DNA of 43,128 bases from Coriobacteriales bacterium (GTDB lineage Bacteria; Actinomycetota; Coriobacteriia; Coriobacteriales; UBA8131): NCBI GenBank assembly GCA_031263105.1, contig JAISGJ010000136.1, forward strand, positions 1-43,128, given 5' to 3'. The position numbers were made by a program, and so were the translations under genes. Positions 230-38,535 of the stretch are shown piece after piece. Numbering within the stretch: the first letter of the stretch is position 1; each line of letters opens with the position of its first letter. The notes under the pieces were generated by a model. It was given only the letters and a program-made list of their open reading frames with translations. It made no database searches and was not told the DNA's origin.

Positions 230-517
230 ATGACAGACACACAGAAGGTAGAGAAGGTCAAGGCACTCATAGAGGAAGTCAGGGTGCTCTCGGAGAAGCT
301 CTCGGAGGACGAGCTCGAGCAGATTGCAGGAGGCCAGTGGTGCTATTGCCTCCTCGGCGGCGGCGGGACAGCAAACGGCCTGGACGAGATATGCGGGTGT
401 GTCGGAGGAGGCGTCGGCAAGACTAGGAATCCGAACAATGAACCCGGAATTAATTCTACCGGAACACGATGCGTATGCACCATCTCGGGTGGCGGGCGCG
501 ATTACAGCACCGTGTAG
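230..517 (+). CDS. RiPP precursor peptide P1 (double-glycine leader, three CxC pairs), orphan copy on the opposite strand
   Basis: SD AAGGAGG (216-222) lies 7 nt before the ATG. The leader MTDTQKVEKVKALIEEVRVLSEKLSEDELEQIAGG is shared with five other small ORFs. The core contains CYC, CGC and CVC. Confidence 0.8.
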   Translation: MTDTQKVEKVKALIEEVRVLSEKLSEDELEQIAGGQWCYCLLGGGGTANGLDEICGCVGGGVGKTRNPNNEPGINSTGTRCVCTISGGGRDYSTV

Positions 518-744: not shown

Positions 745-2037
745 CTAGGCCCCCAGCAGGGCTGCGGGGACTACGGCTATTCCGTCTGGCCTTCGGTAGG
801 CCAAAGGGCCCGTCGTTATGATAAGGGCATCCGCCAGCCTGCCCCCCATGGCCTTCTTCAGCCACACCAGATGCCGCACGTCGGCATCGTCTACAAAGGG
901 AGCGGCCTTCACCTCGACGGCGATTGTCCTGCTGCCTTGGGTGAGGATGAAATCGATCTCACGCTCGCCCTTCTCCGTATGGAAATAGAACATCTCGGCT
1001 TCCAGAACCGCAGCATAGGCGCACAGGCTCTGATACAGCAACGCCTCGAACAGCCGCCCGACGATGTTGCCGTAACGTCCGTCAAAACGTGTCTCAGGCA
1101 GATGCTGGGAGGGCTGGCCCAGAAGGCGGTCGATGCTGATGTCGAGCAGCTGCACGGCAAAGGCAGGGTCTGCGAGATAATGTTTGGGCGTCCTTTTCAA
1201 CCGCGCATAATAGTTCTCGCCGTCAAGCCATGCAGGCAGCTCCTCAATGAGCCAGAGACGTTCAAGCGCCTCCCGATAGGCAATCGTTGTTCTGGTCGCC
1301 GGCTTCTCCGCCACGCCGGCAGTGGCGTTGTCGAGAATCAGGTTGTAGCCCGCAGTTGACGATATGGCCGCCGCATACGCCGTCAACCACCTCTTGAGTG
1401 CCTGAGGCTGCTTGATGTTGATGCCCTCTTGGACGAAGTCATGGGTCAGCAGGTTGTCGAGGTATGACGAGAGCACGGTCCTGCGGCGGCGCTCGTTGGC
1501 AATCCGCAGGGCCGGAAGCCCGGATAGCGCTATCTCGTTCAGGTAGTCGGAGAAGGCAATCGCGGTCTCGCCGCCGATGGGGGCCGAGCACGATTGCCCG
1601 GAATCGAAGAGGCTCGAGAGCGAGACGGTCTTTTTGCCCAATCCGCGCTCTTCGAGGGACAGGGGGAACATCCGTATCCGCACGATTCTTCCCGCACCCG
1701 AGTGGAGGTCGAGGTTCTTGGCGGTAATCGAGCCTGTAAAGAGGAAGCTGCTCCTCTGCCGGTTGCGATCCACGAGCCTGCGAACATGGTCCCAAACCCA
1801 AGGCAGCTTCTGCCATTCGTCAAGAAGGACAGGCTGCTTTGCCGCAACCAGCCTCTCGGCATCGTTTTCCAGAAGCAAGCGGTCGCGCTCACTGTCAAGC
1901 TCAAAGACCGTGTTGGCGATTCGCGAGGCGGACTCCGTCTTTCCGATGCCTTTGAGCCCGTCGACAGAGATGGCAGGCAGGTCGGTCAGCAGGTCTTCGA
2001 GGAAGGGCTCTATGAGCCTGATGTAGCGGCTATCCAT
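745..2037 (-). CDS. AAA ATPase of the AAA_14/DUF4143 type
   Basis: 430-aa ORF. It has an N-terminal P-loop-like GLKGIGKTE. The C-terminal REIDFIL...IAVEVK resembles the nuclease-like end of DUF4143 ATPases. Family assignment is from motif recall only. Confidence 0.7.
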   Translation of the reverse strand: MDSRYIRLIEPFLEDLLTDLPAISVDGLKGIGKTESASRIANTVFELDSERDRLLLENDAERLVAAKQPVLLDEWQKLPWVWDHVRRLVDRNRQRSSFLFTGSITAKNLDLHSGAGRIVRIRMFPLSLEERGLGKKTVSLSSLFDSGQSCSAPIGGETAIAFSDYLNEIALSGLPALRIANERRRRTVLSSYLDNLLTHDFVQEGINIKQPQALKRWLTAYAAAISSTAGYNLILDNATAGVAEKPATRTTIAYREALERLWLIEELPAWLDGENYYARLKRTPKHYLADPAFAVQLLDISIDRLLGQPSQHLPETRFDGRYGNIVGRLFEALLYQSLCAYAAVLEAEMFYFHTEKGEREIDFILTQGSRTIAVEVKAAPFVDDADVRHLVWLKKAMGGRLADALIITTGPLAYRRPDGIAVVPAALLGA

Positions 2038-2086
2038 ACGACCATTCTACGGAAACGCCTCGTTTTGTCAATGATTCTGGAGCCTG

Positions 2087-2125
2087 AATTACAACGATTC
2101 CGGAGTCCCAATTACAACGATTCCG
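2087..2125. repeat. two perfect 16-bp direct repeats (aattacaacgattccg) with a 23-bp period
   Basis: Copies at 2087-2102 and 2110-2125, in the intergenic region just upstream of the 745-2037 gene start. Confidence 0.85.
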
Positions 2126-2205
2126 ACATTTGCAGATGCCGCTGGGATGCACGTGTCAGGGAAACGGCAGGGAGGCTGCCCACGCCTTTGCCTCCTCTTT
2201 GTCTC

Positions 2206-3294
2206 TTAGGATTCCGAATGTCGGAGCAGGTACTCTTGCATGTAGGGGACGTCGAAGCTGATTATGCCGCGTCCCGTCGCCTTGACGACGCCGCTTTCGA
2301 TCAGTCGCAGGCGGTATTTCGCCGCGTAGCCGGAGCTGACCTGCAGGCGCGCGGCCATCTCGGCCATCGAAACGCTGCTCCCGCTCTCTGCCATGGCGAA
2401 GAGGAACGCCTGATCCTTCGCGGACAGCTCGCGCATGATGAGCGCATGGATGTTCCTGAACAGGTCCGCCTTTGAGTTGAGCAGGGCGCGCTCGACGTCG
2501 AGCCTCGACAGGGCCTCCCCTTTGCCTTTCCAGAGATAGTATCCGAGCAGCTGGATCAGGTAGGGGAACCCGCACGTCGCCTTTGCTGCCATAGCGGCCG
2601 TCTCCTCGGTTATCCCCACCTCTGCTTTCTCAAACACCCGTCTGAAGAGATCCTCTGTCAGCATTGCGTCCACACCGGAGAGGAACACCCGGTTCGAGCG
2701 ATGGAGGAACGTCAGGATTTTGTCGTTAAGAACACTGCTCACGGACTGGGGCAGGCCGGCCATAAGAAGCGCGACGTCGTGGTTCTCGCGCATGAGGTGC
2801 TGGTACGTGATCACGAGCTCGCGCATCTCGTCGTTGGCCCTGTGAACCTCGTCGACAAGAAAGACAATGCCCCTGCCGTCGCTTTTCAGCTCGTTTGCCA
2901 GCGAGGTCAGATGGTAACGGAACCCGTGCTCTGGCTCCTTGACGGACGTCGCCACGCCGACGCTGAAGCCCAGCGCCCCGGCATTCAGCCCTATTACGTG
3001 GCGCTTGGCGCTTGGCGAGTCCGCCTGCAGCTGGTCGAGAACAGACTGCAGGAAATGGGGACCCGCAGTCACATCGACAACAGCGAACCGCTTTGAGTCC
3101 AGCGTGTCGCGCACATCGGTAAGGAGCGCGGTCTTGCCCGATCCCCTGATTCCTGAAACCACGGTGACCCGGTTGGGGTCGTTGGGGTTGTCCAAGCCAC
3201 AGAGGAAGTCGCGAACGATGTAGTCACGACCGATAAAGTACTCAGGGCGTTTGCCGAACTGTGGATGAAACGGATTTGCTGCCAGCGCCTCCAT
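2206..3294 (-). CDS. ATP-binding protein (STAND/ORC-like AAA ATPase with C-terminal winged-helix-like region)
   Basis: 362-aa ORF. Walker A is GIRGSGKTALL and Walker B is IVFLVDEVH. The C-terminal segment LQVSSGYAAKYRLRLIESGVV looks like an HTH. Confidence 0.7.
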   Translation of the reverse strand: MEALAANPFHPQFGKRPEYFIGRDYIVRDFLCGLDNPNDPNRVTVVSGIRGSGKTALLTDVRDTLDSKRFAVVDVTAGPHFLQSVLDQLQADSPSAKRHVIGLNAGALGFSVGVATSVKEPEHGFRYHLTSLANELKSDGRGIVFLVDEVHRANDEMRELVITYQHLMRENHDVALLMAGLPQSVSSVLNDKILTFLHRSNRVFLSGVDAMLTEDLFRRVFEKAEVGITEETAAMAAKATCGFPYLIQLLGYYLWKGKGEALSRLDVERALLNSKADLFRNIHALIMRELSAKDQAFLFAMAESGSSVSMAEMAARLQVSSGYAAKYRLRLIESGVVKATGRGIISFDVPYMQEYLLRHSES

Positions 3295-3429: not shown

Positions 3430-5610
3430 CTAGTCCAGCTGCTGGCGGCGGACGAGGTCGGCGAAGAGGCCGCCTTGGGCCACGAGATCGTCGTAGCTGC
3501 CGTCCTCGGCGATGGCACCGTCCTCCAGCACGACGATGCGGTCGGCCTCCTTGATGGTGGAGAGGCGGTGGGCCACGATGATGCGGGTGCTCCTGAGCGC
3601 CGCGAGGGACTCGGAGACCTGCCGCTGCGTGATGTTGTCGAGTGCGCTCGTCGCCTCGTCGAACATGAGGATGCTCGGCTTCGACGCTATCGCGCGCGCT
3701 ATCATGATGCGCTGCTTCTGGCCGCCGGAAAGCCCGCCGGAGCCTTCGCTCACCATGGTCCGCATCCCCATGGGCATGGCGCGGATGTCGGCGGCGACCC
3801 CCGCCATCTCGGCGGCCTCCCAGGCCTCCTTGAGCGTGATCTGCGGCGCGGCGATGCCGATGTTGGAGAAGATGTCGCCCTGGAACAGGTCGCCGGTCTG
3901 CAGGACGACGCCGATGTTGCCCCTGAGAGACTTCAGGTCGAGCTTGCCCATGTCCTTCTCGTCATAGTATATCGCGCCTGCCTGGGGCGCCTCGAAGCCG
4001 AGGAGCAGCCGCAGCAGGGTGGACTTCCCGCAGCCGGTCTTGCCCACCAGGGCAAGGTACTCGCCCCGCCTGATGGTCAGATCCAGATTGTCGAGGACAG
4101 GCGGCGCGTCCTTCTCGTAGGCGAAGGAGACCCCCTCGATACGAATGGAGCCGCCCAGGGAGCGCAGTATCTCCTTGCTCTCCCCCAGCTCGGACGGCTC
4201 TTCGAGCAGGGGCTTTGCAATCTCAAGGATAGGCTTGATGTTCGCCATGGTGCCCACGATGCCGACGATCGGGATGAGTGCGCCGGAGACCTGCCCGAAG
4301 GCCGTCATGAAGGCGAAGTACTGCGGGACGTCCACGCCAGAGGTCGCCGCGACGAAATAGATGAACAGGAGACCTGCAATCCCCACCACCGCGTTCAGGG
4401 CCGGCATCAGCTTCAGCAGGACAGGCGGGTTGTAGTCGCAGCGCGCCTGCTCCTTGTAGATGTCCGCCCATTTTGCGAAGGCCCGCTTCTCGGCGCCGGA
4501 AAGCCGTAGCTTTTGGATGCCGGAGAACAGCGAGAACACGAGTGCGCTCAAGCGATTGGCAAGCGGCAGCCTCCTGCGCATGAGCGCCTGCTCCAGGCGC
4601 ACGCCCAAAAGCCCCACCGCGACCTGCAAGGCTATGGCGACGATGGCGGGCAGCGCAAGGCTTGGCGCTATGGAGAAGATCTGCGCCACATAGACCACGG
4701 AGAATATCGAGGCGAACGACGTCGTGAAGGCGACGGAGACGACGAGGGACGCGACCGAGCTCAGGTTGTTCATCCGGTTCGACAGGTCGCCTGCGCTGAA
4801 GCCCTTGAAGAAGACCGGCGGCATGTTGATGAGCTTGCCGAAGACGGCGCTCTCCATGACTATCTGCAGCTTGGTGGCGATGCGCGTCTCCGCGAGGCTT
4901 TTCAGGATGCCGAAGAGGATCGTCGAGAGCGAGACCCCCACCAGCAAAGCGGCAATCGCCCCCAGCTCCGAGAGCCGCCCCGAGGGGATCACGTGCGAGA
5001 AGATGAACTCGTTCGCCCAGGGCAGGGCAAGCCCCACGAGCGCCACGGCGACGGTCGCGAGCAGCACCAGGGAGAAGTCAGCCTTCTCGGTGCGCTCGAA
5101 CAGGAACCTGACAATGCCGCGCAAGTCGGTCGCGTCGTTGGGGAGCGGCCGGTAGAAGCAGATCGCGTCCCCTTCGAGCGCCTCTGCGGCCCGGGCGTTC
5201 ATCCTCACCTTCTGTCGACGCCCGTAATCGAAGAAGCGGTAGCCGCTCAACGTGGGGACGAGCGCCACATAGCCTCCCGCCTTGGTCTTGCACAGCATCG
5301 CCTCACTCGCGTTCTTCCACCACGCGCCCTCAAGCGACACATGGCGCCACATGACGCCGGACGGCCTGAGCAGGCGCTCGAGCCAGTCGTCGCCCTCCGT
5401 GTCGAAGTCGTCGCCCGCGTCGCGGGCGATGCCGTAGAAGCGGCATATCTCATCGACCGCGCTGCGCGTCCTTGTCTGCTCGCTCGACACGTACTCGGAG
5501 GCGACCTTCTCCCCCATGAGGACCGCCGCGAGGTCAAGGGTGGCATTGGTGAGCTGCGCGTCGTCGAAGGCAACCCGGTCGCGGATCTGTTTTTCCTGAA
5601 ATTGCACCAT
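3430..5610 (-). CDS. bacteriocin/RiPP-type ABC exporter, permease-ATPase without a recognisable C39 catalytic domain
   Basis: Start chosen at ATG 5610 (MVQFQEKQ...), 5 nt after the stop of the upstream gene. Walker A is GKTGCGKST, signature is LSGGQKQR and Walker B is ILMFDEATSALD. There are six or so TM segments. The N-terminal ~170 aa show no Cys/His peptidase motif. Confidence 0.85.
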   Translation of the reverse strand: MVQFQEKQIRDRVAFDDAQLTNATLDLAAVLMGEKVASEYVSSEQTRTRSAVDEICRFYGIARDAGDDFDTEGDDWLERLLRPSGVMWRHVSLEGAWWKNASEAMLCKTKAGGYVALVPTLSGYRFFDYGRRQKVRMNARAAEALEGDAICFYRPLPNDATDLRGIVRFLFERTEKADFSLVLLATVAVALVGLALPWANEFIFSHVIPSGRLSELGAIAALLVGVSLSTILFGILKSLAETRIATKLQIVMESAVFGKLINMPPVFFKGFSAGDLSNRMNNLSSVASLVVSVAFTTSFASIFSVVYVAQIFSIAPSLALPAIVAIALQVAVGLLGVRLEQALMRRRLPLANRLSALVFSLFSGIQKLRLSGAEKRAFAKWADIYKEQARCDYNPPVLLKLMPALNAVVGIAGLLFIYFVAATSGVDVPQYFAFMTAFGQVSGALIPIVGIVGTMANIKPILEIAKPLLEEPSELGESKEILRSLGGSIRIEGVSFAYEKDAPPVLDNLDLTIRRGEYLALVGKTGCGKSTLLRLLLGFEAPQAGAIYYDEKDMGKLDLKSLRGNIGVVLQTGDLFQGDIFSNIGIAAPQITLKEAWEAAEMAGVAADIRAMPMGMRTMVSEGSGGLSGGQKQRIMIARAIASKPSILMFDEATSALDNITQRQVSESLAALRSTRIIVAHRLSTIKEADRIVVLEDGAIAEDGSYDDLVAQGGLFADLVRRQQLD
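3696..3732. repeat. 37-bp exact direct repeat, copy 2 (inside the intact ABC gene)
   Basis: Identical to 702-738. It covers the LSGGQKQRIMIA codons of the 3430-5610 gene. Confidence 0.9.
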
Positions 5611-5615
5611 GTGGG

Positions 5616-7829
5616 TCACTCCATCGAGATCAGCTTCGTGTAGAGCCCTCCGGCGGCAAAGAGCTCCGCGTGTGTGCCGCGTTCCTGCACGCGGCCCTGG
5701 TCCAACACGATGATCTCGTCGGCGTCGCGTATCGTCGAGAGGCGGTGCGCCACGATCACGCAGGTGATGCCGCGCTCCCGTATGGAGCGGATGACCTCGT
5801 ATTCCGTCTTCGCGTCCAAGGCGCTCGTCGCCTCGTCCAAGATGAGCAGGGTGGGGTCCTGGGCCAGCGCGCACGCGATCTCTATCCTTTGGCGCTGCCC
5901 GCCCGAGAAGTTCTTGCCGCCCTCGGAGACCGTGTCGTTGTAGCCCCGTGGGCGCCGCACGATCTCCTCGTGTATCGCGGCGTCACGCGCCGCGAGGATG
6001 ACCTCGAAGTCCTCGATGCTCTTGTCCCACATCTTGATGTTCTCGGAGACGCTGTCCTCGAACATGATGATGTCCTGGTCGACCACGGCGATCGAGGAGG
6101 TGAAGGCGACCCGGGGAATCTCCGAGCGCGCCTTGCCGTCGTAGGTGATGCTGCCGCTCCACGGGTCGTACAGGCCGGAGATCAGCTTCGCCAGCGTGGA
6201 CTTCCCGCAGCCCGACGCCCCCACGAAGGCGACCTTGGAGCCGGGCGCAAGCCTCATGTCGAAGTCTTGGATGAGCGGCTCGGCCAGAGGCGAGTAGCCG
6301 AAGGTGACCCCTTCCATGCGGATCTCTCCGCGCAGCTTCTCGAGGCGCGTGTCATCTTCGAAGTCGGCGTTGGCTGCATCGACGTCCGCCTCGTAGTGCA
6401 TGACGTCCTCGATGCGCTCCATCGACACCCGCATCTCCTGGATGCCCTGCCCTGTGGTTATGAGGCTGTTCACAGGGTTGAGGAAGGCCTGCACGAACGA
6501 CTGGAAGGCGAGCAGCATGCCGGCGGTGAACTGCCCTGCCATGATGAGCGCCACGCCCAGCATCAGAATCAGGAGGTTGAGAAGGCTCTGCACGAGGCCG
6601 GGCAGCGAGCCGAGCGAGAAGTTGAGGGCGGCGGTCTTGGTGGCCGACTCGGTATACAAGGCGTACAGGCCGGCCCACTTCGCGAAGAACCCGTTCTCTG
6701 CGCCCACGGACTTGATGGTCTCCATCATGGAGATGCCGGTCAGCGTCATCCCCTGGAGCATGCTCTGGTTGCGCACCTGGACCCGTGATATGTCCACCCG
6801 CCTCTTTGAGATGACATACGCGAGCGCCACGTTCAGGAGCGTCGCCGCACAGGCGATGCAGGCGAGCAGGACGTTGTAGCGCATCATGACGGTCAGGTAG
6901 ATGACAAGGAGCGCCGCGTTTATGAGCACGGGGGCGACCCGCATGACGAAGGTCGCCGCTATCGCGTCGTTCGACGCCTGCCTGAGGGCGATGTCCCCCG
7001 CGAGCCTCTGGGAGAAGAAGCGCATGGGCAGCCTCAGCACATGCCAGATGAAGCCCGCGTTCGAGGATATGGCCAGCCTGCCCGCCACCTTGAACAGGTA
7101 GAACTGGTTGAGGGCGAGCGCGATGAACATGAACGCCCCGAAGGCGGCGAACACGCCCAGGAAGGGCATGAGCCAGGCCTGGTCCGCCTGCGCAAGTATC
7201 CGGTCGGTGAAGACGCGCATGAACGACGGCTGGACGATGCCGCCGACCGCGATGAGCGCGCTCATGAGCGCAAGCAGCACCAAGGCTGAGAAGGAGCCTG
7301 TCAGGCGCTCCCGCACAAAGCCCAGCACGCTGCGCGGCTTGCCTTCGGGCCTGAAGTCGGGCCCGGGGCTCAGTGTGATGCATATCCCGGAATAGGAGTG
7401 CTTGAACTTCTCGAACTCCAGGTCGTAACGGCCCCGTGCCGGGTCGCTGATGCAGGCTGTCGCGCCGCCTCGCTTGAAGCCCTCCAAGACGACGAAGTGG
7501 CTGAAGTTCCAGAAGAGGATGCAGGGAAAGGACGTCTTCGCCGCAAGCTCCTCCGCCTCGTACTTGAAGCCCTTGGCCTCGAGCCCATGGTTGCGCGCGG
7601 CCTTGAGGATGTTGCGGGCGGTGCTGCCGTCCCGCGAGACGCCGCAGTCCTCGCGCAGCTTTTCGAGGGGGATCCACTTGCGGTAGTGCGCGAGCACCAT
7701 GTCGAGGGAGGCGGCCCCGCACTCGGCGGCCTCCATCTGGAGGATCACGGGAACCTTTATGCGCCTTGCCTTTGCGCGCGTCGGCCGCATCTTCTGTTGT
7801 GCGTTCTCGTTGTCTTGTCCGGTCGTCAT
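5616..7829 (-). CDS. C39 peptidase-domain ABC exporter (double-glycine leader cleavage and export)
   Basis: The N-terminal LQMEAAECGAASLDMVLAHY supplies the catalytic Cys and FSHFVVLEG supplies the His. Walker A is GASGCGKST, signature is FSGGQRQR and Walker B is LLILDEATSALD. Confidence 0.9.
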   Translation of the reverse strand: MTTGQDNENAQQKMRPTRAKARRIKVPVILQMEAAECGAASLDMVLAHYRKWIPLEKLREDCGVSRDGSTARNILKAARNHGLEAKGFKYEAEELAAKTSFPCILFWNFSHFVVLEGFKRGGATACISDPARGRYDLEFEKFKHSYSGICITLSPGPDFRPEGKPRSVLGFVRERLTGSFSALVLLALMSALIAVGGIVQPSFMRVFTDRILAQADQAWLMPFLGVFAAFGAFMFIALALNQFYLFKVAGRLAISSNAGFIWHVLRLPMRFFSQRLAGDIALRQASNDAIAATFVMRVAPVLINAALLVIYLTVMMRYNVLLACIACAATLLNVALAYVISKRRVDISRVQVRNQSMLQGMTLTGISMMETIKSVGAENGFFAKWAGLYALYTESATKTAALNFSLGSLPGLVQSLLNLLILMLGVALIMAGQFTAGMLLAFQSFVQAFLNPVNSLITTGQGIQEMRVSMERIEDVMHYEADVDAANADFEDDTRLEKLRGEIRMEGVTFGYSPLAEPLIQDFDMRLAPGSKVAFVGASGCGKSTLAKLISGLYDPWSGSITYDGKARSEIPRVAFTSSIAVVDQDIIMFEDSVSENIKMWDKSIEDFEVILAARDAAIHEEIVRRPRGYNDTVSEGGKNFSGGQRQRIEIACALAQDPTLLILDEATSALDAKTEYEVIRSIRERGITCVIVAHRLSTIRDADEIIVLDQGRVQERGTHAELFAAGGLYTKLISME

Positions 7830-7857
7830 GGAATCTCACATCGAAGGTTCTGCGCAG

Positions 7858-8403
7858 TCAGTTGAGCAAGAACGAGATGAGCTTTTCCTCGCGTGTGACG
7901 ATGGTGACCTCCGCGACGGTATCGCCGGTTCCTGTCGGGGCGCCGTCGGCCGCGACACCCCCAGGGGCAGCGTCTATCGTCACGCGGTACCCGAAGGGGC
8001 TCGTGGCCAGAAGGTAGGCCATCCACGCGTCGGCCTGCTCGTCGGCGACCTCCTCCTGCGAGAGCGGACGGGCGCCGACCTCGGCGACGGTGCCCTCGAG
8101 AACCGTGCCGTCGGGCATGGCCACGCGCGCATCGCAGCCGACAAGCGGCGTGGACGGCATCTGCTCGACCGGTATGTAGCTCACGACGCTTCCGTCCTCA
8201 TGGACAAGCCCCGTGGCGGAGAGGGTCTGGGAGAAGCTGCCCGTGAATCCCCAGATCAGGGCACCCGCCACGAACACCACGAGCGCGGCCACCGCAATCC
8301 AGGCGCTGGGCCGCACCACCCTCAGATAACCGTCGAGCCTCTCCGGCGAGAGCACCCGTTCGATGGCCTCCTCGCTGAACAGCTCCCGTTTCGTCTCAGC
8401 CAT
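7858..8403 (-). CDS. short HlyD/membrane-fusion-like secretion protein (181 aa)
   Basis: The N-terminus FSEEAIERVLSPERLDGYLRVVRPSAWIAVAALVVFVAGALIW resembles NHLP/Nif11-type bacteriocin secretion proteins. It has a single TM segment. It lacks the long coiled-coil portion of normal HlyD proteins. Confidence 0.6.
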   Translation of the reverse strand: MAETKRELFSEEAIERVLSPERLDGYLRVVRPSAWIAVAALVVFVAGALIWGFTGSFSQTLSATGLVHEDGSVVSYIPVEQMPSTPLVGCDARVAMPDGTVLEGTVAEVGARPLSQEEVADEQADAWMAYLLATSPFGYRVTIDAAPGGVAADGAPTGTGDTVAEVTIVTREEKLISFLLN

Positions 8404-8438
8404 GTCTCCTTGCTCCTGTCAATGCAAAAATGGGACGC

Positions 8439-8729
8439 CTACCTTTCGATGGAAGCCGGGCCAATCCCACTGTAAGGGTCAAGGTCTGCTCCGAAGCCGT
8501 AGGCGTGGCAGCCGCATCGTATTCCCTCGTCATTCGTGCCCTCGCCACCTGTTTCACAGGAACACAGCTTACTGCCATGGTCGTTTCCCTGTCCATCCCC
8601 GCCTAAGGCACAGATACAGACGCCGCCGCCCGCAACCTGCTCAAGTTCGTCTTCCGAGAGCTCCGCTGAGAGCTCCTCGATTTCTCCCATGAGCGCCTTG
8701 ACCTTCTCTACCTTCTGTGTGTCCGTCAA
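8439..8729 (-). CDS. RiPP precursor peptide P2 (GG leader, CIC/CSC/CGC core)
   Basis: TTG start (8727-8729) lies 7 nt after GGAGG. The leader is MTDTQKVEKVKALMGEIEELSAELSEDELEQVAGG. Confidence 0.8.
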   Translation of the reverse strand: MTDTQKVEKVKALMGEIEELSAELSEDELEQVAGGGVCICALGGDGQGNDHGSKLCSCETGGEGTNDEGIRCGCHAYGFGADLDPYSGIGPASIER

Positions 8730-8768
8730 GACGGTTCCTCCTTTTTGCCTACAGTCAATCGGTGCCTC

Positions 8769-8937
8769 CTAGGGAAGTGCCGATTAATTGCTTGTGCGCC
8801 AGATTGCGCCTGATCTGCCCCAGGTCTGTTCGGGGGCGCAACGCCACTACTTGCGGTAATGGCGTTGTGCTCACGGGCAGAGCTGGGGCAGATCAGGCGT
8901 GAGATGGTGCGCAATGAATTAATCGGTGCTTCCCTAG
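8769..8937. mobile_element. 169-bp MITE-like hairpin element flanked by CTAG
   Basis: The 32-nt imperfect terminal inverted repeats (8769-8800 and 8906-8937) are 26/32 complementary by hand count. An inner perfect 17-nt inverted repeat lies at 8807-8823 and 8883-8899. A related copy is at 21595-21660. Confidence 0.6.
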
Positions 8938-9203
8938 CACTTATCTATTCCCCAGCCGGCACCGGCACAGGCACATCGTGGATACATGCTGCTTTTGTCG
9001 GCGTCGGAGCGCCCGCTGCCAGAAAACACGCATGCACACGCGTGATCACCCCGGCCGTTCCCTTCTCCACCTCCAATCGCAGGGCAGACGCAGACGCCGC
9101 CGCCCGCGACCTGCTCAAGCTCGTCTTCCGAGAGCTCCGCTGAGAGCTCCTCGATTTCTCCCATGAGCGCCTTGGCCTTCTCTACCTTCTGTGTGTCCGT
9201 CAT
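8934..9203 (-). CDS. RiPP precursor peptide P3 (GG leader, CVC/CAC/CAC core plus C-terminal Cys)
   Basis: ATG start preceded by GGAGGG. The leader DNA is 104/108 identical to P2 by hand alignment. The stop codon TAG lies in the terminal CTAG of the hairpin element. Confidence 0.8.
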   Translation of the reverse strand: MTDTQKVEKAKALMGEIEELSAELSEDELEQVAGGGVCVCPAIGGGEGNGRGDHACACVFSGSGRSDADKSSMYPRCACAGAGWGIDKC

Positions 9204-9363
9204 GCTGGTTCCCTCCTTGCAGTTGATCGATTGAAACCTGTACTGCTGTTCCGCCCTGCCCCGGGCAATCCCAAGAGATCACCCGGAGCCTGCGGCACTG
9301 ACGCCCGCCGCCGCCTCGCGTATCCGCTCGGCGTATTATGTCTGACGACAGAGGAAATCGTTA

Positions 9364-9729
9364 TTATTTCCCCGCACCTAGCATTGAACAGCCGCAAACA
9401 GGGCTGAGCTCGCCGCCGCCGCCGCCGCCGCCGGCGGAACCGCACGTGCCGGCACCGTCGGCCCCGTCAGCTCCAAACCCGCCGCTGCTGCAGGCACAGC
9501 GCAGATTGCCCGGATTCGATAAAGACCCTGGGCTTGTGGTGCCCGCGCCAAAGGCAGCACAAAAACACTCGCCGCCCTGATCGGTCGCGCTGCCATAACC
9601 GCTCGCCGCGCAGTCGCACGCACCGCCGCCCGCGACCTGTTCAAGCTCGTCTTCCGAGAGCTCCTCCGAAAGCTCCTCGACCTCCTCGGCGAGGGCTTCG
9701 ACCTTCTCCACCTTCTCTGTGTCTGTCAT
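9364..9729 (-). CDS. RiPP precursor peptide P4 (GG leader, CDC/CFC/CAC core with long Gly-rich tail)
   Basis: Start placed at the internal ATG 9729 (MTDTEKVEK...), which matches all paralogs. The 23 upstream codons of the track ORF have no paralog support. Confidence 0.75.
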   Translation of the reverse strand: MTDTEKVEKVEALAEEVEELSEELSEDELEQVAGGGACDCAASGYGSATDQGGECFCAAFGAGTTSPGSLSNPGNLRCACSSGGFGADGADGAGTCGSAGGGGGGGELSPVCGCSMLGAGK

Positions 9730-9842
9730 GACATTCCTTTCTCTCATATCTTTCGACCCCTGAAGACCGAGATCATCATCAAGCTCACCCGTGAGCACCG
9801 CTCACAACTTCACATGGTCCAAGAAGAAGCATCCGAGGGATT

Positions 9843-10211
9843 TCACAAAATAGAAAGCATGGTGCACGCGGTGCCGCCGCCACCGCCGGAACCCGCGTTG
9901 CCGCCAGCAGCGGCAATCATACCGGGGAGGGCGCACCCAGGGCCGGCAGTTTCGCCCCCGGACCCGCTCCCTGAGCAGGCGCAACGCAGGTGGTCTGGAT
10001 CCGATGAATCGGCGACTGTGGTGCCTGCGCCAAGGGCGGAGCAGGTGCATCGGCCGCCCTTGTCGGTCGCGCCGCCGTAGCCGCTCCCTGTGCAGTTGCA
10101 CGCGGCACCGCCCGCGACCTGTTCAAGCTCGTCTTCCGAGAGCTCCTCCGAAAGCTTCTCGACCTCCTCGGCGAGGGCTTCGACCTTCTCGGCCTTCTCT
10201 GTGTCTGTCAT
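9843..10211 (-). CDS. RiPP precursor peptide P5 (GG leader, CNC/CTC/CAC core with Gly-rich tail)
   Basis: The ATG overlaps the rSAM stop (ATGA at 10208-10211). Its SD AAGGAGG lies inside the rSAM 3' end. Confidence 0.8.
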   Translation of the reverse strand: MTDTEKAEKVEALAEEVEKLSEELSEDELEQVAGGAACNCTGSGYGGATDKGGRCTCSALGAGTTVADSSDPDHLRCACSGSGSGGETAGPGCALPGMIAAAGGNAGSGGGGGTACTMLSIL

Positions 10212-11710
10212 GGTGATGCCTCCTTTTCTTTTGAAATCAACCGATGGGAGGACGGGTCGGGTGACCCATCCTCTTTTTGCCTCCTTTTGCTCGCTCCTTC
10301 GTCGCGCTTCACTGACGCCGCATCAATACCTCCCGCCGCTGTCGCAGTCTCATATATCCGCTCGGCAAAGCCGCCGCGAAGTATCAGGCAGAAGCCCTCG
10401 TCGGGCGCCATGAGGTCGTCGGGGTGGTCCACCAGCGCAGAGGCGCGGCAGCCGGCGCCGCAGACGAGGCGCTGCTCGCACGTTTGACAGCGCTCGTTGT
10501 GCGCAAGGTAGTCCTTGAGGCGCGTGTCGATGAAGCCCATGTAGTACGAGTCGCTCAGGCACTGCGCGAGGCTCATGTCCTCGAGTCCCGGGAAGTCCTG
10601 TTGTATGTCCATACCGGAAAGCGCCATGCAGGGAAGCACCTTGCCGTCGGCGGCGATATACATGACCTGACGCGCGTGGCCGCATACGCACTGGGCCATA
10701 AGGGCCGTCTCGTCGCCCCCGCAGGACTTCTGCGCGGGTATCTGAAACGCAGGGTCGCCCCTCCTCGCGTAGAAGGCCCCGCCGAGCATGACGTTCATCG
10801 GCTGGCCGTCCTCGTAGTAGTGCGGGATGTAGTCGAGATAGGCCTCGAGCGTCTCCTCGAGGGACAGGTCGTCGTCGCCCGCGTTCTGCGCCCAGGCGCC
10901 CGTCTTGCCCGCAGGGTTCGTCTTGATGTGGGCGACGCCGAGCCCCGCGAGGTGGTTGATGCTCTCGCGCAGCGTGCCCTTGTTGCGCTGGTGCAAGGTG
11001 AGCTCCGCCCCCAACGGGAAGCCGCGCTCATGGCAGAGCGCGAGCGCACGGTTCACCTCCCGCTCCGCACCCTCGACGCCGCGCAGCCAGTCGTGGAAGC
11101 CCACGCCGTCGAAGCTCATGTTGAACTCCGGGCGGATGCCGCGCGCATCGAAGCCGTCGAGCAGCTCCGGCGTGACGAGCTTGCCGTTGGAGTAGACGGT
11201 CGTGATGCGGATGCGGTAGGCGAGCAGACGGTCGATGATCTGCCAGAAGTCCTTCCTGACCAGTGGCTCGCCCCCGGTGATCGAGACCTCGCGGATGCCG
11301 CAGCCCGCTATCTCGTCGGCTATGCTCAGGCACTTCTCCGTGGAGAGCTGGCCGTACTTGGCGTCCGGTGCCGACATGTAGCAGTGGCGGCAGCGGTAGT
11401 TGCAGTGCCCCGTGATCGACCAGTGGGCCGTGCGCATGAAGCGGGAGTCGAAGCGGCGGTATCTCTGCCATGCGTCCAGCCTGCTGCCCGGGGCGCACTC
11501 GCTGACGATCCCGCTCCCAGCAAGCTTCTCGACGGTGGGGTGCAGCCGTTCGGGGATGTGCTCCATGCCTATCTCGCCGTCGCAGCAGCTCAGGGCCTCG
11601 AAGGCATCGGCATCCAAGAATGACACGCCGTAGCTTGGGGTGAACAGCGCGAAGGGGAGCCTCTGCCAGCCCCTCAGCGCATAGCCCTTGTTCAGGATGT
11701 AGCTTGTCAC
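10208..11710 (-). CDS. radical SAM / SPASM-domain peptide maturase with N-terminal RRE-like domain
   Basis: CNYRCRHC matches CX3CX2C and GGEPL is present. The C-terminal Cys clusters CVCGH...VLPC and CQTCEQRLVCGAGC are SPASM-like. The N-terminal ~95 aa precede the rSAM core. The GTG start overlaps the P6 stop. Confidence 0.85.
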   Translation of the reverse strand: MTSYILNKGYALRGWQRLPFALFTPSYGVSFLDADAFEALSCCDGEIGMEHIPERLHPTVEKLAGSGIVSECAPGSRLDAWQRYRRFDSRFMRTAHWSITGHCNYRCRHCYMSAPDAKYGQLSTEKCLSIADEIAGCGIREVSITGGEPLVRKDFWQIIDRLLAYRIRITTVYSNGKLVTPELLDGFDARGIRPEFNMSFDGVGFHDWLRGVEGAEREVNRALALCHERGFPLGAELTLHQRNKGTLRESINHLAGLGVAHIKTNPAGKTGAWAQNAGDDDLSLEETLEAYLDYIPHYYEDGQPMNVMLGGAFYARRGDPAFQIPAQKSCGGDETALMAQCVCGHARQVMYIAADGKVLPCMALSGMDIQQDFPGLEDMSLAQCLSDSYYMGFIDTRLKDYLAHNERCQTCEQRLVCGAGCRASALVDHPDDLMAPDEGFCLILRGGFAERIYETATAAGGIDAASVKRDEGASKRRQKEDGSPDPSSHRLISKEKEASP

Positions 11711-11898
11711 AATATGGCTTCAAGCGGCAATCTGCTGTCTTTTACGGTGCCATCTTCGAGATACACCACGGGGGCATTGAGTTCGAACGGCAGGCCGCCT
11801 GCCACCTGCTCGAGCTCCTCCTCCGTGAGCTCCTTCGAGAGCTGCTTGACCTCCTCGATGAGAGCCTTGATCCTTGCCACCTTCTCTGTGTCAGTCAT
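11707..11898 (-). CDS. RiPP precursor-like peptide P6 (same GG leader, cysteine-free core)
   Basis: The leader is MTDTEKVARIKALIEEVKQLSKELTEEELEQVAGG. The core is LPFELNAPVVYLEDGTVKDSRLPLEAIL. SD AAGGAG lies 8 nt upstream, and the stop overlaps the rSAM GTG. Confidence 0.7.
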   Translation of the reverse strand: MTDTEKVARIKALIEEVKQLSKELTEEELEQVAGGLPFELNAPVVYLEDGTVKDSRLPLEAIL

Positions 11899-11917
11899 AG
11901 TTCCCGCTCCTTTTCTC

Positions 11918-14719
11918 CTAGCTGGCGTACTGGGCGTCGAGCTCGCGGGCGAGCAGGGCGTTCTTCTGGTTCTTCACGATGCGCTCAAGGTGCGTGAGGA
12001 GGGTCGGCTCTATGTCGGGGTGGGCCGCCATCCAGGCATCGGTGCGATCGACGGTTGCCTGGCCGGCCAGGCCGAAGGGGTAGAAGTTCTGAACGAGCGT
12101 GGTGGAGATCGCGTTGCTGTTGTTCTCGATGACGGACTGCAGGCGCTCGAAGTAGACCTCGTCCAAGCCCGCATACACCTCGCTGGCATCGGGGTAACGC
12201 ACATACGGGTTGTAGAAGTACCAGGTCGCGTCCGCCTCTGCAAAGCTCATCTCCTTGCCGGAGAAGTAGGTATCGAGCAGGGAGCGCCTGACCTCGGTGG
12301 TGGGGAAGCGCAGCCTGGAGCGCTCGCTGAGAGTCACGATCTCGGGCTCGTCCGCGCCCAGCTCCGCAATCAGCGCGTCGATGTCCTCCGCACCGGCCTG
12401 GCCCGCCGCAATGAGCGTGTTGAGCGCACCGAAGCGGATGTAGGGCGCGCGCCACACGGTGGTGCCAGCCATGACCTCGCGCAGGAACGCGATGCTCTTC
12501 TCGGAATCGGAACGGAGCGCACATACCAGGACGGGCATGATGGTGTCCTCGCCCCATGCGTCGAAGACCCCCGCATTCAAGGCGTCCACTATCGCATCGG
12601 CGACGGCGCCGGTGCTGCGCCCGAGGTTCTCGTCGGCCGTCAGCGAGTACAGGTCTGCGCCCATGGCCGCACCGTCGAGCGACTTGTCGCTGAGCACTGC
12701 GATCTCGTAAGGGGAGCGCGTGGCCGCAAGGACGTCTGCAATGACGCCAAGGGTGCGCGAGGCAGGGTATTTGAGGTCGCGCGTCATCTGCATCAGGTCA
12801 AAGACGGCGAGGGTCCTTACGAAGGGATCGTCCAGCGCCCCGATGTGCTGCTCGAGCGTCGCAAGGCTCACCTCGTCGAAGACGACCTTGGAGTAGTCCG
12901 CGCCCGCATGGTCTATAAGGATGAGGTCGGGGCGCTCGGCGCCGGCTACGGCGGGCACCTCGGTCTCGTCACCCGAGACGAGCACCTCGTGCGCGTCACG
13001 CAGCACGAGCCGCTCGGCACCGCCCTCGCCCACCAGGTCGTAGAAGCCTATCTCCAGCTTGTGCGTGCGCAAAAGCGGCGTGTTGGCGCCGCCCGTGTAC
13101 TCCTCTGCGGCCTGGGTCACCACAAGCCGCTCGATGCGGCCCTGCTCGTCCGTCTCCACCACGGGGGCGAGCGTGTTGACGCCGGTGGCGGTGAGCCACT
13201 CCTCGGACCAGCCCGCCATGTCTATGTCCGCATAGGGCTGGAAGGCGGCGATGAAGTCGCTGAGCCTGGCGTTGCCCTCCGCATGCTGTGCGAAGTAGTC
13301 GTGGATGCCGCTCCTGAAGCTCTCCTCGCCCACGAGCGCATGGAGCTGCGTGAGCGCCATGCTCCCCTTGGCATAGGTGATGTTGTCCACGTTGGCATCC
13401 GACTGCTCGATGGTGATGTCCGAGTCGGACGCGATGGCATGGGTCGCGGGGCCCTGGTCCTGGTCAACGGCGGCAAGCCGCGTCAGGTCCTGCCCGTAGA
13501 TGAGGTAGTCGTCGTTGCCCGTAAGGGCCGCGACGGCCCTAAGCGAGATGAACTCGGCAAAGGACTCGTTGAGCCACAGGTCGTTCCACCATTCCATGGT
13601 CACAAGGTTGCCGAACCACTGGTGCGCAAGTTCGTGCAGGATGGTGATGTCGTTATACATGCGCTCGAAGAGCGAGTCGGCATACACCTCATGGAGCGTG
13701 ACGGCACCGACGTTCTCCATGCCGCCCCAGAGGAAGTTCGGCACGTAGATCTGGTCGTACTTCTCGTAGGGGAACTCCGTGCCGAACGCCTGCTCGTAGT
13801 ACGCGATCCCGGCCTTGGTGAGGTCGAACCACGCGTCGAAGTCCGCCCCCTCGGCCACGGAGGGGCGCGCATAGAAGCCGAGGGGCACCTGGCGACCGTC
13901 CGAGGCCTCGTAGGTGGACGTGACCTGGACGTAGTCGCCCGCTATGAGGGAGCTGAGGTAGGTGCTCATGAGCGGCGAGGGCGCGAACTCCCAGTGCCTC
14001 GTGTCGCCGTTCTCCGTGGGCTCACCGACCGGATCGGTGGCGGTGACGACCGTCCACTGCTTCGGCGCGTCCACGCTGAGGGTGAAGTGCGCCTTGAGGT
14101 TGGGCTGGTCGAAGCACGCGAAGACGCTCTGGGCGTAGGCAGACTCGTGCTGCGTGTAGATGAAGGTCTGGCCCTCGTCCTCGGGAGGGGCCTCGCGCAT
14201 GATGCCGACGCCGGATACGGAGTAGCCGTTCGTGGCGGTGAGGCGCAGCGTATTGGCGGCCTCAAGGCCCGTGAGCAGGATGCGCCCGTGCTCCTTGTCG
14301 TAGACCGCTGCGGGGTCGAGTTCCGTGCCGTTGAGCTCGATGCTCCCGATGTCCGCAAGGCGCGCGTCGATGAAGCTCTCCGCGCCCGGCTCGGCGCTGA
14401 AGCTCACCTCCTCGGTGAGGGCATAGGTCTCGCTCGTGCCATCCAGCTCGAACGCGAGCGCGTAGTCGATGTCCGAGAGCGCGGATGCCCGCGCGAGCAT
14501 CTCCTCATAGGTGACGTAGGCCGTCTGCACGCCCTCGGACGTGCCTGTCGCGTCCGACGTCGCCGCAGGGGCTGTGTCCGCAGGGGCACCGCCCGCAGGG
14601 GCGGCGTCCTGTGCGCCCGGTTGCCCGCTCGAACACGCCGTCGCACCGACGGTGCCGAGCGCCAGCAGCAGCGCCAGCAGCAGCGCCAGCAGTTTACGCG
14701 AGAATGTCGTAGTCGTCAT
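11918..14719 (-). CDS. M1-family zinc aminopeptidase (PepN-like), probable lipoprotein
   Basis: It has the GGMEN exopeptidase motif and HELAHQWFGN...WLNESFAEF (HEXXH-18-E). The N-terminal signal ends in the lipobox-like ATAC. The stop is 19 nt from the P6 start. Confidence 0.85.
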   Translation of the reverse strand: MTTTTFSRKLLALLLALLLALGTVGATACSSGQPGAQDAAPAGGAPADTAPAATSDATGTSEGVQTAYVTYEEMLARASALSDIDYALAFELDGTSETYALTEEVSFSAEPGAESFIDARLADIGSIELNGTELDPAAVYDKEHGRILLTGLEAANTLRLTATNGYSVSGVGIMREAPPEDEGQTFIYTQHESAYAQSVFACFDQPNLKAHFTLSVDAPKQWTVVTATDPVGEPTENGDTRHWEFAPSPLMSTYLSSLIAGDYVQVTSTYEASDGRQVPLGFYARPSVAEGADFDAWFDLTKAGIAYYEQAFGTEFPYEKYDQIYVPNFLWGGMENVGAVTLHEVYADSLFERMYNDITILHELAHQWFGNLVTMEWWNDLWLNESFAEFISLRAVAALTGNDDYLIYGQDLTRLAAVDQDQGPATHAIASDSDITIEQSDANVDNITYAKGSMALTQLHALVGEESFRSGIHDYFAQHAEGNARLSDFIAAFQPYADIDMAGWSEEWLTATGVNTLAPVVETDEQGRIERLVVTQAAEEYTGGANTPLLRTHKLEIGFYDLVGEGGAERLVLRDAHEVLVSGDETEVPAVAGAERPDLILIDHAGADYSKVVFDEVSLATLEQHIGALDDPFVRTLAVFDLMQMTRDLKYPASRTLGVIADVLAATRSPYEIAVLSDKSLDGAAMGADLYSLTADENLGRSTGAVADAIVDALNAGVFDAWGEDTIMPVLVCALRSDSEKSIAFLREVMAGTTVWRAPYIRFGALNTLIAAGQAGAEDIDALIAELGADEPEIVTLSERSRLRFPTTEVRRSLLDTYFSGKEMSFAEADATWYFYNPYVRYPDASEVYAGLDEVYFERLQSVIENNSNAISTTLVQNFYPFGLAGQATVDRTDAWMAAHPDIEPTLLTHLERIVKNQKNALLARELDAQYAS

Positions 14720-15175: not shown

Positions 15176-15940
15176 ATGTACGCAGTCGTTACAACAGGTG
15201 GAAAGCAGTACAGGGTCGCGGATGGCGACGTCATCGAGGTCGAGAGGCTCGATGTCGAGCCGGGCGGGACCATCGAGATGGACGTGCTCTTCCTGGCCGA
15301 CGGCTCGAAGGTGACGCACGATGCCGACGGGCTTGCCAAGGCGAAGGTCTTTGCCGAGGTCCTCGACCATATCAAGGGCGACAAGGCGCTGGTGTTCAAG
15401 CTCAAGAAGCGCAAGGGCTACAAGCGCCTGCGCGGGCATCGGCAGGATCTGACACGCCTGCTCGTGCAGGGCATCTCCCCTACGGGCGATGCGCCGAAGA
15501 AGAAGCCTGCCGCCGCCGCGAAGCCTGCGAAGGCCGACAAGGCGGCGAAGTCCGAAGGGCCCGCGAAGGACACGGCGACGACTGCCGGGAAGCCTGCCGC
15601 GAAGAAGGCCACCGAGCCTTCCGCCCCTGCCCCGAAGAAGCCTGCGGAGGAGAAGCCTGCCGCGAAGAAGGCCGTTGCGACGAAGAAGGCCGACAAGGCC
15701 GCATCGGGCGACGAGAAGAGGCCCGCCGCCAAGAAGGCTGCCCCGAAGGAGCCCGCCGCCAAGAAGACGGCCGCTCCCAAGAAGCAGGATGCCGAGAAGC
15801 CCGCCGCGAAGAAAACGGCCGCATCTAAGAAGCCTGCCGAGGACACGGCGGCCCCTGCGAAGAAGCCCGCCGTCAAGAAGACGGCTCCTCAAAAGGCCGC
15901 AAAGGACGCAGAAGGCACCGCAGGCGCAAAGGTCGAGTAG
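15176..15940 (+). CDS. rplU: 50S ribosomal protein L21 with a ~150-aa Ala/Lys/Pro-rich C-terminal extension
   Basis: [14 protein letters not shown]...[14 protein letters not shown] is the canonical L21 core (about 100 aa). It is followed by [19 protein letters not shown]-type repeats that run to the stop. Confidence 0.9.
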
Positions 15941-33888: not shown

Positions 33889-33999
33889 TTTTAGTTGTCA
33901 TAGGTGCCGTTTCTGCACGTGTCTCAGCCTCATGCTCGCTCGGGATATGCTATGATGCAGGCAGTGCTTTTTACATCGTCTCGAACGGGGAAGGCCGCT

Positions 34000-36234: not shown

Positions 36235-36443
36235 GCCCAAAGATAGCGGTGTGAGTCATCGTTGTTTTCGGAGAAGAGGAGAGGACATGAACAGGATCAG
36301 ATCGGGGACAAGAGGATGCTCGCCGGGGCTCCATGAAACGAGACCGACCCGGCGAGCGATGAGTGAAATCGGTCTCGATGCCATTGAATTAGGGTCCGTG
36401 TTAACCCTTGTTCTAAACACTGTTGCGGAAAGGATGATTTATC

Positions 36444-36830
36444 ATGACTTATGACGGAACACTTGTGATGCCGAGGAACTGCGTGGCGATGACGGAAGAC
36501 GAGATGACGTATGTCGAGGGTGGATACATCGCCACCAGCTATGGAACCGCAAAACAACTAAAGAATCATGCTGCGGGGTTGATGACTGGCTGGTTTGCCT
36601 TGACAGGTGGTTTTTCACTTGCGGCTGCGGCTTTGGTTGCTAGTGGCGTAGGAGTTGTTGCGGGAGTTATTGCGGGAATAGGTGCAGGATATTGCGCATT
36701 TGCAGGCAATGAGTATAGGAAGGCATTCAATTACTTTTCGGCCAAAAGTCAGACAAGTTCTACCAGATATAAAATGTCCACAACTTCCTTCATAGGTTTT
36801 ATTACTGGTGTGAGCTATGGCTTAGCCTAG
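36444..36830 (+). CDS. double-glycine-leader bacteriocin-like precursor (large Gly/Ala-rich hydrophobic mature part)
   Basis: ...MTEDEMTYVEGG followed by YIATSYG fits the LSxxELxxIxGG leader logic. The mature part is 102 aa with GxxxG-rich hydrophobic stretches. It lies immediately after the C39 exporter. Start codon choice (36444, 36468 or 36492) is uncertain. Confidence 0.65.
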   Translation: MTYDGTLVMPRNCVAMTEDEMTYVEGGYIATSYGTAKQLKNHAAGLMTGWFALTGGFSLAAAALVASGVGVVAGVIAGIGAGYCAFAGNEYRKAFNYFSAKSQTSSTRYKMSTTSFIGFITGVSYGLA

Positions 36831-36861
36831 GATATGGCATAGCCCAAGGAGGTGCTGATTA

Positions 36862-37327: not shown

Positions 37328-37452
37328 GAGCCAAAGAGGAAGGCCACAACGACTCTGCGTCAATTCCTGTTTTGTTTTTTCGTGGGTATGTCGCATATGG
37401 GTGTTACAGAAAAAAAGGAGGCGAGTTTTGTTCGACATGTTTGGGGCATGTG

Positions 37453-37737: not shown

Positions 37738-37804
37738 GGTAGCGGCGCGTTGAGTCGATGCGTCGACATGGCATTGCTGTAAGAGAGCGATACTGAGACT
37801 GAAA

Positions 37805-38513: not shown

Positions 38514-38535
38514 GCGGTAGAAGGAGGGCGCTTCT

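Follow-up and report, generated by a model that had tools for sequence, protein, structure and literature searches.

Gene content and layout of the cluster

The stretch of DNA analysed here (referred to hereafter as the window; all 43,128 nucleotides of contig JAISGJ010000136.1, from the Coriobacteriales bacterium assembly GCA_031263105.1) carries a gene cluster for peptides that are made by the ribosome and modified after translation (RiPPs), in which precursor peptides P1–P5, a further leader-bearing peptide (P6), a single radical S-adenosylmethionine (SAM)/SPASM maturase (referred to as rSAM) and an export apparatus are encoded. A first-pass annotation, made from the sequence of positions 3430–14719, had described a co-directional minus-strand array running from an M1 metallopeptidase through P6, rSAM, P5, P4, P3 and P2 to an HlyD-like protein, a C39-peptidase ATP-binding cassette (ABC) exporter and a second ABC subunit; the open reading frame (ORF) list, read with the sequence of the minus strand, bears out this order and strand, together with the junctions (P6/rSAM overlapping by GTGA, rSAM/P5 by ATGA, gaps of 19 nt between M1 and P6 and 5 nt between the two ABC genes). 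The features are as follows.

230–517, plus strand: P1 precursor, 95 aa; 35-aa leader ending ELEQIAGG; apart from the main array, near the contig end
3430–5610, minus strand: second ABC exporter subunit, 726 aa, without C39 domain (Pfam ABC_membrane and ABC_tran)
5616–7829, minus strand: C39-peptidase ABC exporter (peptidase-containing ABC transporter, PCAT), 737 aa (Pfam Peptidase_C39, 112.9 bits, with ABC_membrane and ABC_tran)
7858–8403, minus strand: short membrane-anchored HlyD-like protein, 181 aa (partial TIGR03794 match)
8439–8729, minus strand: P2 precursor, 96 aa, TTG start
8769–8937, no strand assigned: long, imperfect inverted repeat that separates the stop of P3 from the start of P2 (RNA fold and arm complementarity)
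8934–9203, minus strand: P3 precursor, 89 aa
9364–9729, minus strand: P4 precursor, 121 aa, four modules (ATG at 9729, giving MTDTEK; the longest ORF begins further upstream)
9843–10211, minus strand: P5 precursor, 122 aa
10208–11710, minus strand: radical SAM/SPASM peptide maturase, 500 aa (Pfam Radical_SAM, 69.9 bits)
11707–11898, minus strand: P6 peptide, 63 aa, with the same leader as P1–P5 and a Cys-free 28-aa core
11918–14719, minus strand: M1 (PepN-like) metallopeptidase with lipoprotein-type signal (Pfam Peptidase_M1)

Shine-Dalgarno-like sequences precede all of the peptide genes, and every ORF is intact with a ribosome-binding site; the start–stop overlaps suggest that translation is coupled. 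P1 and P2 have ~45 nt of 5′ untranslated region in common, ribosome-binding site included. Promoter and terminator scans returned nothing convincing at the cluster, and tRNA and Rfam scans nothing useful.

A shared leader and a strict Cys-Gly core module

All six peptide genes encode a leader ending in ELEQ[VI]AGG, and the double-glycine/C39 export logic that the first-pass annotation had read from this ending is borne out. A degenerate DNA pattern for the motif has six matches in the window where 0.02 would be expected by chance, the sixth being P1, on the plus strand and outside the stretch 3430–14719. The 35-residue leaders are pairwise identical at 23–34 of their 35 residues, while the cores diverge. 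The proposed likeness to the C-terminal part of Nif11 leaders also stands: the window peptides match the Nif11-like leader model TIGR03798 over its C-terminal third alone, below cutoff (16–17 bits; cutoff 32.3), whereas the full-length leaders of relatives pass it (44.7 and 46.2 bits), and we therefore regard the window leader as a truncated Nif11-type derivative. Against NCBIfam the precursors match leader models alone, all below cutoff (complete lists, 2–4 families per precursor).

The cores had been described as triple CxC pairs in Gly-rich linkers. The CxC pairs are there, but the placement of Gly is far stricter than this wording implied, each pair belonging to an exact C-x-C-x3-G-x-G module, and the number three does not hold throughout, P4 having four modules and P6 no Cys. 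In total P1–P5 contain 16 instances (P1 residues 38–46, 55–63 and 81–89; P2 residues 38–46, 56–64 and 72–80; P3 residues 38–46, 56–64 and 77–85; P4 residues 38–46, 55–63, 78–86 and 112–120; P5 residues 38–46, 55–63 and 77–85), and P5 has two lone Cys in addition, of which one stands in a C-x3-G setting. In P3 the six module Cys are joined by a seventh at the C-terminal end. When P1–P5 are aligned, the core invariants are the module Cys and Gly and an Arg ahead of the third module, and nothing else.

The radical SAM/SPASM maturase

The rSAM protein bears the CX3CX2C motif (C103/C107/C110) together with the seven-Cys SPASM motif (CX9–15GX4C…CX2CX5CX3C…C), here C343-x12-G356-x4-C361, C408-x2-C411-x5-C417-x3-C421 and C441, and is by this signature a radical SAM/SPASM maturase; in an alignment of 31 homologues the CX3CX2C and SPASM cysteines are invariant. 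The Pfam SPASM model scores 19.5 bits, slightly under its cutoff of 21.5. Of the first proposal, that rSAM is the sole tailoring enzyme, the neighbourhoods of related loci bear out that it is the only conserved one: among their clustered neighbour ORFs no second tailoring enzyme recurs.

NCBIfam and Pfam scans covered all ten proteins, and relatives as well; against the NCBIfam models rSAM and the precursors gave nothing above cutoff. Among the matches listed for rSAM (the best 25 of 64), the highest is ScmE (96.8 bits; cutoff 400), with StsB (NF045574; 89.4 bits, cutoff 625), rSAM_nif11_3 (67.8 bits, cutoff 725), PapB (NF047865; 46.5 bits, cutoff 340) and the ACGX-repeat model (TIGR04340; 46.3 bits, cutoff 400) also below; there is no SCIFF or CXXX-repeat maturase model among these best 25, and no precursor model of either kind in the complete precursor lists. 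The enzymes of relatives likewise pass no NCBIfam model. Two of them score 103.5 and 74.4 bits against StsB, which is the top NCBIfam match of one relative (P0029), and the PapB model matches rSAM and relatives weakly (46–56 bits). The cores had been set apart from the SCIFF, CXXX-repeat, ACGX-repeat and classic sactipeptide layouts; among the matches listed no model of the first three is passed, but the module does resemble the sactionine motifs of StsA and BlaA (PMC10288494).

In a confident AlphaFold2 model of rSAM, built from the 31-sequence alignment (pLDDT, the predicted local distance difference test, 86.7), an N-terminal β/α domain (approximately residues 1–90) precedes the radical-SAM barrel, and the SPASM region is C-terminal. 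Its top Foldseek matches are SkfB, SuiB, CteB, PqqE, TigE and anSME, all at 14–18% identity, and the modelled fold places rSAM among the peptide-modifying SPASM/twitch enzymes. The structural alignments with SuiB and CteB span ~480 columns, most of the protein, and this length is consistent with a precursor-binding function for the N-terminal ~90-residue domain, which we predict. Both by sequence and by fold the closest solved structure is SkfB, the sporulation killing factor sactisynthase (PDB 6efn; E = 6e-19 with the family profile), confidently so only over the radical-SAM core (residues 115–314) and not the SPASM region. The two share a Tyr following CX3CX2C and a Thr preceding GGE, and differ in their N-terminal domains, with 18% identity by structural alignment. 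SkfB is reported to make a single Cys-Met link.

These two residues are positions 1 and 2 of the six-residue “catalytic site proximity” profile (PMC10288494), and both group rSAM with StsB and SkfB. The residue following CX3CX2C is Tyr in rSAM, StsB (PMC10288494) and SkfB, Phe in SuiB and CteB, and Ser in PqqE; that preceding GGE is Thr in rSAM, SkfB and, by motif mapping, StsB (T147), Leu in SuiB and Ser in PqqE.

The export apparatus

The exporter genes had been likened to the three-gene cassette (TIGR03794, TIGR03796, TIGR03797; Haft 2010) of nitrile hydratase leader peptide (NHLP)/Nif11 systems, in which a C39-ABC exporter is likewise paired with a second ABC subunit. This is secure for the C39-ABC exporter, which passes TIGR03796 (896.4 bits; cutoff 853.3), and falls slightly short for the second ABC protein, a near miss over the full length of TIGR03797 (NHLM_micro_ABC2; 685.8 bits, cutoff 709.4). 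The HlyD-like protein matches TIGR03794 only at positions 1–61 of 421 (42.2 bits; cutoff 156.2). Relative to that cassette, then, the window system has a leader shortened to 35 residues and an HlyD protein shortened to 181. Short HlyD-like homologues (~170–180 aa) are found by tblastn at 42 of 81 related loci, and cluster as a family in 33. We predict that the C39-ABC exporter cleaves the leader after GG during export.

A family of related loci in gut anaerobes

The first-pass annotation had presented a multi-precursor radical SAM RiPP cluster that it could not assign to any characterized class. The cluster is real and no curated family claims its rSAM, but it is no orphan: with each species represented by a single genome, at least 539 genome stretches, from Clostridia of gut and rumen, Synergistaceae and Coriobacteriia, encode an rSAM relative, and the protein collection searched holds more than 1,740 homologues, 77–88% identical in Coriobacteriales metagenome contigs and ~50% identical in Clostridia. 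From these stretches 80 loci were kept, nearly all from metagenome-assembled genomes, which belong to Lachnospiraceae, Oscillospiraceae, Christensenellaceae, Eubacterium, Synergistaceae, Atopobiaceae and Eggerthellaceae-like bacteria; where a source is named, it is a gut, rumen or faecal sample. Their leaders, outside the window, are usually of full Nif11 length.

Modules were counted in 85 sequence sets (the window and 84 loci, some of them duplicates of one contig). Any module at all occurs in 152 of 9,999 ORFs; 142 short ORFs have at least two, and 127 exactly three. Spacing between modules peaks at 17 residues, cores begin 2–4 residues past GG, and an Arg stands ahead of the third module in 77% of the family peptides. 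When the Gly positions are not presupposed, the 312 CxC pairs found in GG-leader cores are followed by Gly at +6 in 93% of cases and at +8 in 98%. A profile built from P1–P5 retrieves at least 288 clusters (50% identity) among 1.84 billion representatives, and 127 of the 156 matches examined contain exactly three modules.

Precursors and enzyme co-occur family-wide: all 131 precursors lie on the strand of their rSAM gene, 129 of them within 3 kb of it. Among the 35 loci where rSAM is flanked by at least 8 kb either way, precursors are present in 30 and both ABC genes in 26. When the neighbouring ORFs are clustered, recurrence is limited to rSAM, the precursors, the two ABC genes and the short HlyD-like protein, joined in 16 loci by an extracytoplasmic function (ECF)-type sigma factor. 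The closest relative with genomic context (rSAM 82% identical) has the identical order of rSAM, three precursors, a 179-aa HlyD-like protein, C39-ABC and ABC. We consider the window cluster to be, probably, a Coriobacteriia sub-branch with short leaders, within a family that is sactipeptide-like, has Nif11-type leaders and is exported by a PCAT.

Some Clostridia loci encode many paralogous triple-module precursors per rSAM (12, 8 and 7 at the loci we label L038, L010 and L033). On another contig, of 3.6 kb (L087, 1288–2634), a 77%-identical rSAM gene sits between HipA_C-like and amidase genes with no precursor on the contig, and may be an orphan or relocated copy.

Neither Pfam-A nor NCBIfam 20.0 has a model of this rSAM family or its core, and the public names of the proteins are “radical SAM protein” or “hypothetical protein”. 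Full-text literature searches yielded no description of the family, although most subscription journals were out of reach and a mention in a large-scale atlas is possible.

Proposed chemistry: nested Cys-to-Gly thioethers

The closest parallels to the module are the StsA/StsB and BlaA/BlaB systems (PMC10288494), in which CxC, a short loop and GxG also follow one another, a single radical SAM/SPASM enzyme acts, and nested links have been proven: StsB makes three nested links from Cys sulfur to Gly α-carbon in StsA (CxCxCx4GxGxG), and BlaA (CxCx4GxG) has the links Cys13–Gly22 and Cys15–Gly20 (PMC10288494). The window peptides depart from them in having a loop of three rather than four residues, in the tandem repetition of the module (three or four times in one long Gly-rich core), and in their Nif11-type leader with GG cleavage and PCAT export. 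The StsB system also uses a separate precursor-binding protein, StsC, whereas here the binding domain appears fused to rSAM; rSAM and a relative reach 89–103 bits against the StsB model (cutoff 625), and the hosts are gut anaerobes as opposed to Streptomyces (S. sparsogenes, for StsA). Ruminococcin C of the gut bacterium Ruminococcus gnavus (RumC1-5, RumMC1/2; PMC9389541) is alike in its paralogous precursors per locus, its radical SAM/SPASM maturase and its build as a multi-hairpin sactipeptide (double hairpin, four links; PMC9389541), but the RumC acceptors are not GxG, the leaders differ and we detected no sequence relationship. In the prochlorosin-type Nif11 systems one enzyme similarly serves many precursors with a conserved leader, divergent cores and GG cleavage, though there it is a lanthionine synthetase and here a radical SAM protein that would do the tailoring.

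From the resemblance of the module to StsA and BlaA we predict three tandem mini-hairpins with nested Cys-to-Gly thioethers; installation of such sactionines by rSAM in the C-x-C-x3-G-x-G modules is, on this analogy, what we hold on balance to be the probable chemistry, and the modified peptides would then most likely be small sulfur-bridged hairpins. The precursors P1–P5, each with its shortened Nif11-type leader and a Gly-rich core in which variable linkers divide three modules (four in P4), would be bound by the single rSAM/SPASM enzyme, probably through its N-terminal domain. A 5′-deoxyadenosyl radical would abstract the Gly α-carbon hydrogen and the Cys sulfur would then be joined at that carbon, giving a sactionine (thioaminoketal). 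In glycine the α-carbon is the only position at which a thioether can form. Within each module the inner ring would join Cys3 to Gly7 (i to i+4) and the outer ring Cys1 to Gly9 (i to i+8), such that three tandem nested mini-hairpins amount to six links per peptide (eight in P4) and expected mass changes of −12.09 Da for P1, P2, P3 and P5 and −16.13 Da for P4. For the cores left after GG cleavage this would mean a shift from 5265.228 to 5253.134 Da in P3 and from 6045.582 to 6033.488 Da in P2. The C39-ABC exporter, second ABC subunit and short HlyD-like protein would cut after GG and export the product, and P6, having no Cys, would pass through the same exporter unmodified.

We infer the register of the rings from the lone cysteines of family cores (n = 82). 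Around these, Gly is enriched only at +4 (44%, 34/77, against a background of 25%; p = 2e-4), with no enrichment at +6 (15%) or +8 (11%). This fits a minimal C-x3-G ring equivalent to the inner pair Cys3–Gly7, and hence a nested register with Cys1–Gly9 as the outer ring. Also in favour of the sactionine reading are the conservation of the module, its genetic linkage to rSAM and, for the enzyme, SkfB as best PDB match, StsB as top NCBIfam match of P0029 and the two active-site-proximal residues in common with StsB and SkfB.

Several observations weigh against nested sactionines. The enzyme is far from every characterized sactisynthase (89 bits against the StsB cutoff of 625, 18% identity to SkfB by structural alignment). 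SuiB (which forms a C–C bond), CteB (a non-α thioether), PqqE and anSME match the modelled fold about as well as SkfB does, so the fold leaves the reaction unfixed. The loop is x3, not the x4 of StsA and BlaA; the active-site comparison covers two positions, mapped by motif adjacency; the invariant Gly could serve conformation or metal binding instead; and the chemistry as a whole is a prediction by analogy.

One alternative is a different radical SAM reaction (epimerization as in proteusins, X-Y-G splicing, C–C or C–O crosslinking, or Cys oxidation), with CxC and GxG serving to bind metal, to form disulfides or to make tight turns. Metals are classically bound by CxC pairs, rSAM has no close characterized relative, and some modules contain “YG” (in 23% of peptides the third module has Tyr at position 7). 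Nif11 and NHLP leaders, moreover, are those of radical SAM epimerases and spliceases (PMC11002830; PMC10849128). Conservation, however, falls on Cys and Gly and not on Tyr, which reaches at most 23% at any module position and so does not form the conserved X-Y-G of spliceotides; spliceases also use a separately encoded RiPP recognition element (RRE) partner, PlpY (PMC11002830), and no conserved small partner gene of this kind lies near rSAM. The spacing from Cys to Gly, in turn, mirrors that of proven sactionine donor and acceptor pairs (PMC10288494), and we regard a different reaction as unlikely. Thioethers of another kind are less likely again, in our estimate: ranthionine-type links (from S to Cβ or Cγ in the linkers), crossed sactionines (Cys1–Gly7, Cys3–Gly9) or sactionines between modules. 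Such links would suit the likeness of the fold to the ranthisynthase CteB, the weak PapB matches (46–56 bits) and the Asp, Glu and Thr that are common 3–6 residues past each module. Yet no Asp, Glu or Asn stands at a fixed distance, Gly alone being near-invariant (93% and 98%); the PapB, SCIFF and ACGX models lie far under their cutoffs; and the crossed register sits poorly with lone Cys that pair statistically with Gly at +4 and not at +6 or +8.

That the cluster is decaying or silent, its peptides neither made nor modified in this organism, we think very improbable. Such a state would account for the separation of P1 from the array (two AAA-ATPase genes intervene and P1 is on the other strand), for the absence of Cys from P6 and for the want of a convincing promoter or terminator in the scans; against it stand the intact ORFs with their ribosome-binding sites, the suggested translational coupling, the retention of leader identity (23–34 of 35 residues) and of every module Cys and Gly, and the gene order kept in the 82%-identical relative.

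P6 and the M1 metallopeptidase

P6 combines the ELEQ[VI]AGG-type leader with a 28-residue core that has no Cys; having the leader in common with P1–P5 but nothing for a Cys-directed enzyme to act on, it probably travels through the same exporter as unmodified cargo. In the databases, 14 peptides carry the short leader of the window with unrelated cores, and many related loci encode additional GG-leader peptides without CxC cores, some of them zinc-ribbon-like. Cys-rich examples with paired CxxC, zinc-ribbon-like and non-CxC cores lie at L002 7737–7976, L022 6221–8578, L073 7–336 and L088 2197–2863. The non-CxC peptides of related loci are presumably further exporter cargo, or substrates of other fate. 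We considered P6 as a conserved partner peptide of rSAM and rejected this: immediately 5′ of rSAM one usually finds the gene of an ordinary triple-module precursor, and where non-CxC peptides lie upstream of rSAM their cores are unrelated.

The M1 peptidase had been counted as part of the cluster. It does adjoin P6, yet none of 81 related loci carries a homologue, so it is not a general member of the cassette and we place it outside the conserved system. Against TIGR02412 it scores 566.7 bits (cutoff 591.2). On a short contig from a related metagenome (L089, 215–1640) a close homologue of the M1 lipoprotein has, 20 nt upstream, the gene of a P6-like peptide with a short leader, and M1-family proteases such as AplP trim RiPP leaders (PMC10885120). 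Given this neighbourhood and precedent, the M1 lipoprotein may be a lineage-specific accessory, perhaps a trimming protease.

Other features of the window

The imperfect inverted repeat at 8769–8937 occurs once in the window. Its 82-nt arms are 79% complementary and its RNA fold reaches −105.5 kcal/mol (z = −8.7); it could be an RNA hairpin for processing, stabilization or attenuation, or a small inserted palindromic element.

Two AAA-ATPase genes (AAA_14 with DUF4143; AAA_16/AAA_22) occupy 745–3294, between P1 and the exporter-gene end of the array. No related locus has a counterpart of them, and their insertion may have parted P1 from the array. The window opens with ~80 bases of nearly pure poly-C (positions 1–82), most likely an artefact of sequencing or assembly where the contig ends; P1 begins only ~150 nt beyond them.

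A separate, second bacteriocin-type export locus lies at 33904–39660, with these features.

33904–36234, plus strand: C39-ABC exporter of the second locus
~36–38 kb: low-GC stretch (47–51%) with small membrane-protein ORFs
36444–36830: ORF with an internal double-glycine-type leader (MTEDEMTYVEGG/YIATSYG...)
38536–39660: full-length HlyD gene

Ribosomal protein L21 (gene at 15176–15940) is extended at its C terminus by ~150 residues rich in Lys, Ala and Pro, which weakly match histone-H1-like HC2.

Wider significance

A bolder view of the family would make it a RiPP class not yet described, from anaerobes of gut and rumen, in which one radical SAM enzyme stitches three or more tandem two-Cys/two-Gly knots into long Gly-rich peptides, between hypervariable linkers, and up to 12 precursors per locus form a natural display library; we offer this as speculation that is unlikely to hold. 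Under it, the CxC…GxG chemistry could differ from the classical sactionine (a new crosslink, or a metal-binding modified site), and a protease could cut at the conserved Arg ahead of the third knot and so free single knots in the gut.

Should the prediction of nested Cys-to-Gly links prove true, a widespread sactipeptide-like family, named by no curated library or literature that we searched, would produce peptides each bearing three small bicyclic knots, with variable linkers and many paralogous precursors per enzyme. It would provide a compact one-enzyme, one-peptide system for the processive radical SAM installation of six or more links, and a scaffold for peptide engineering. The products would be candidate competition or signalling molecules of gut microbiomes, a role at which we can only guess, and the Cys-to-Gly logic of StsA and BlaA may reach far past the actinomycetes.

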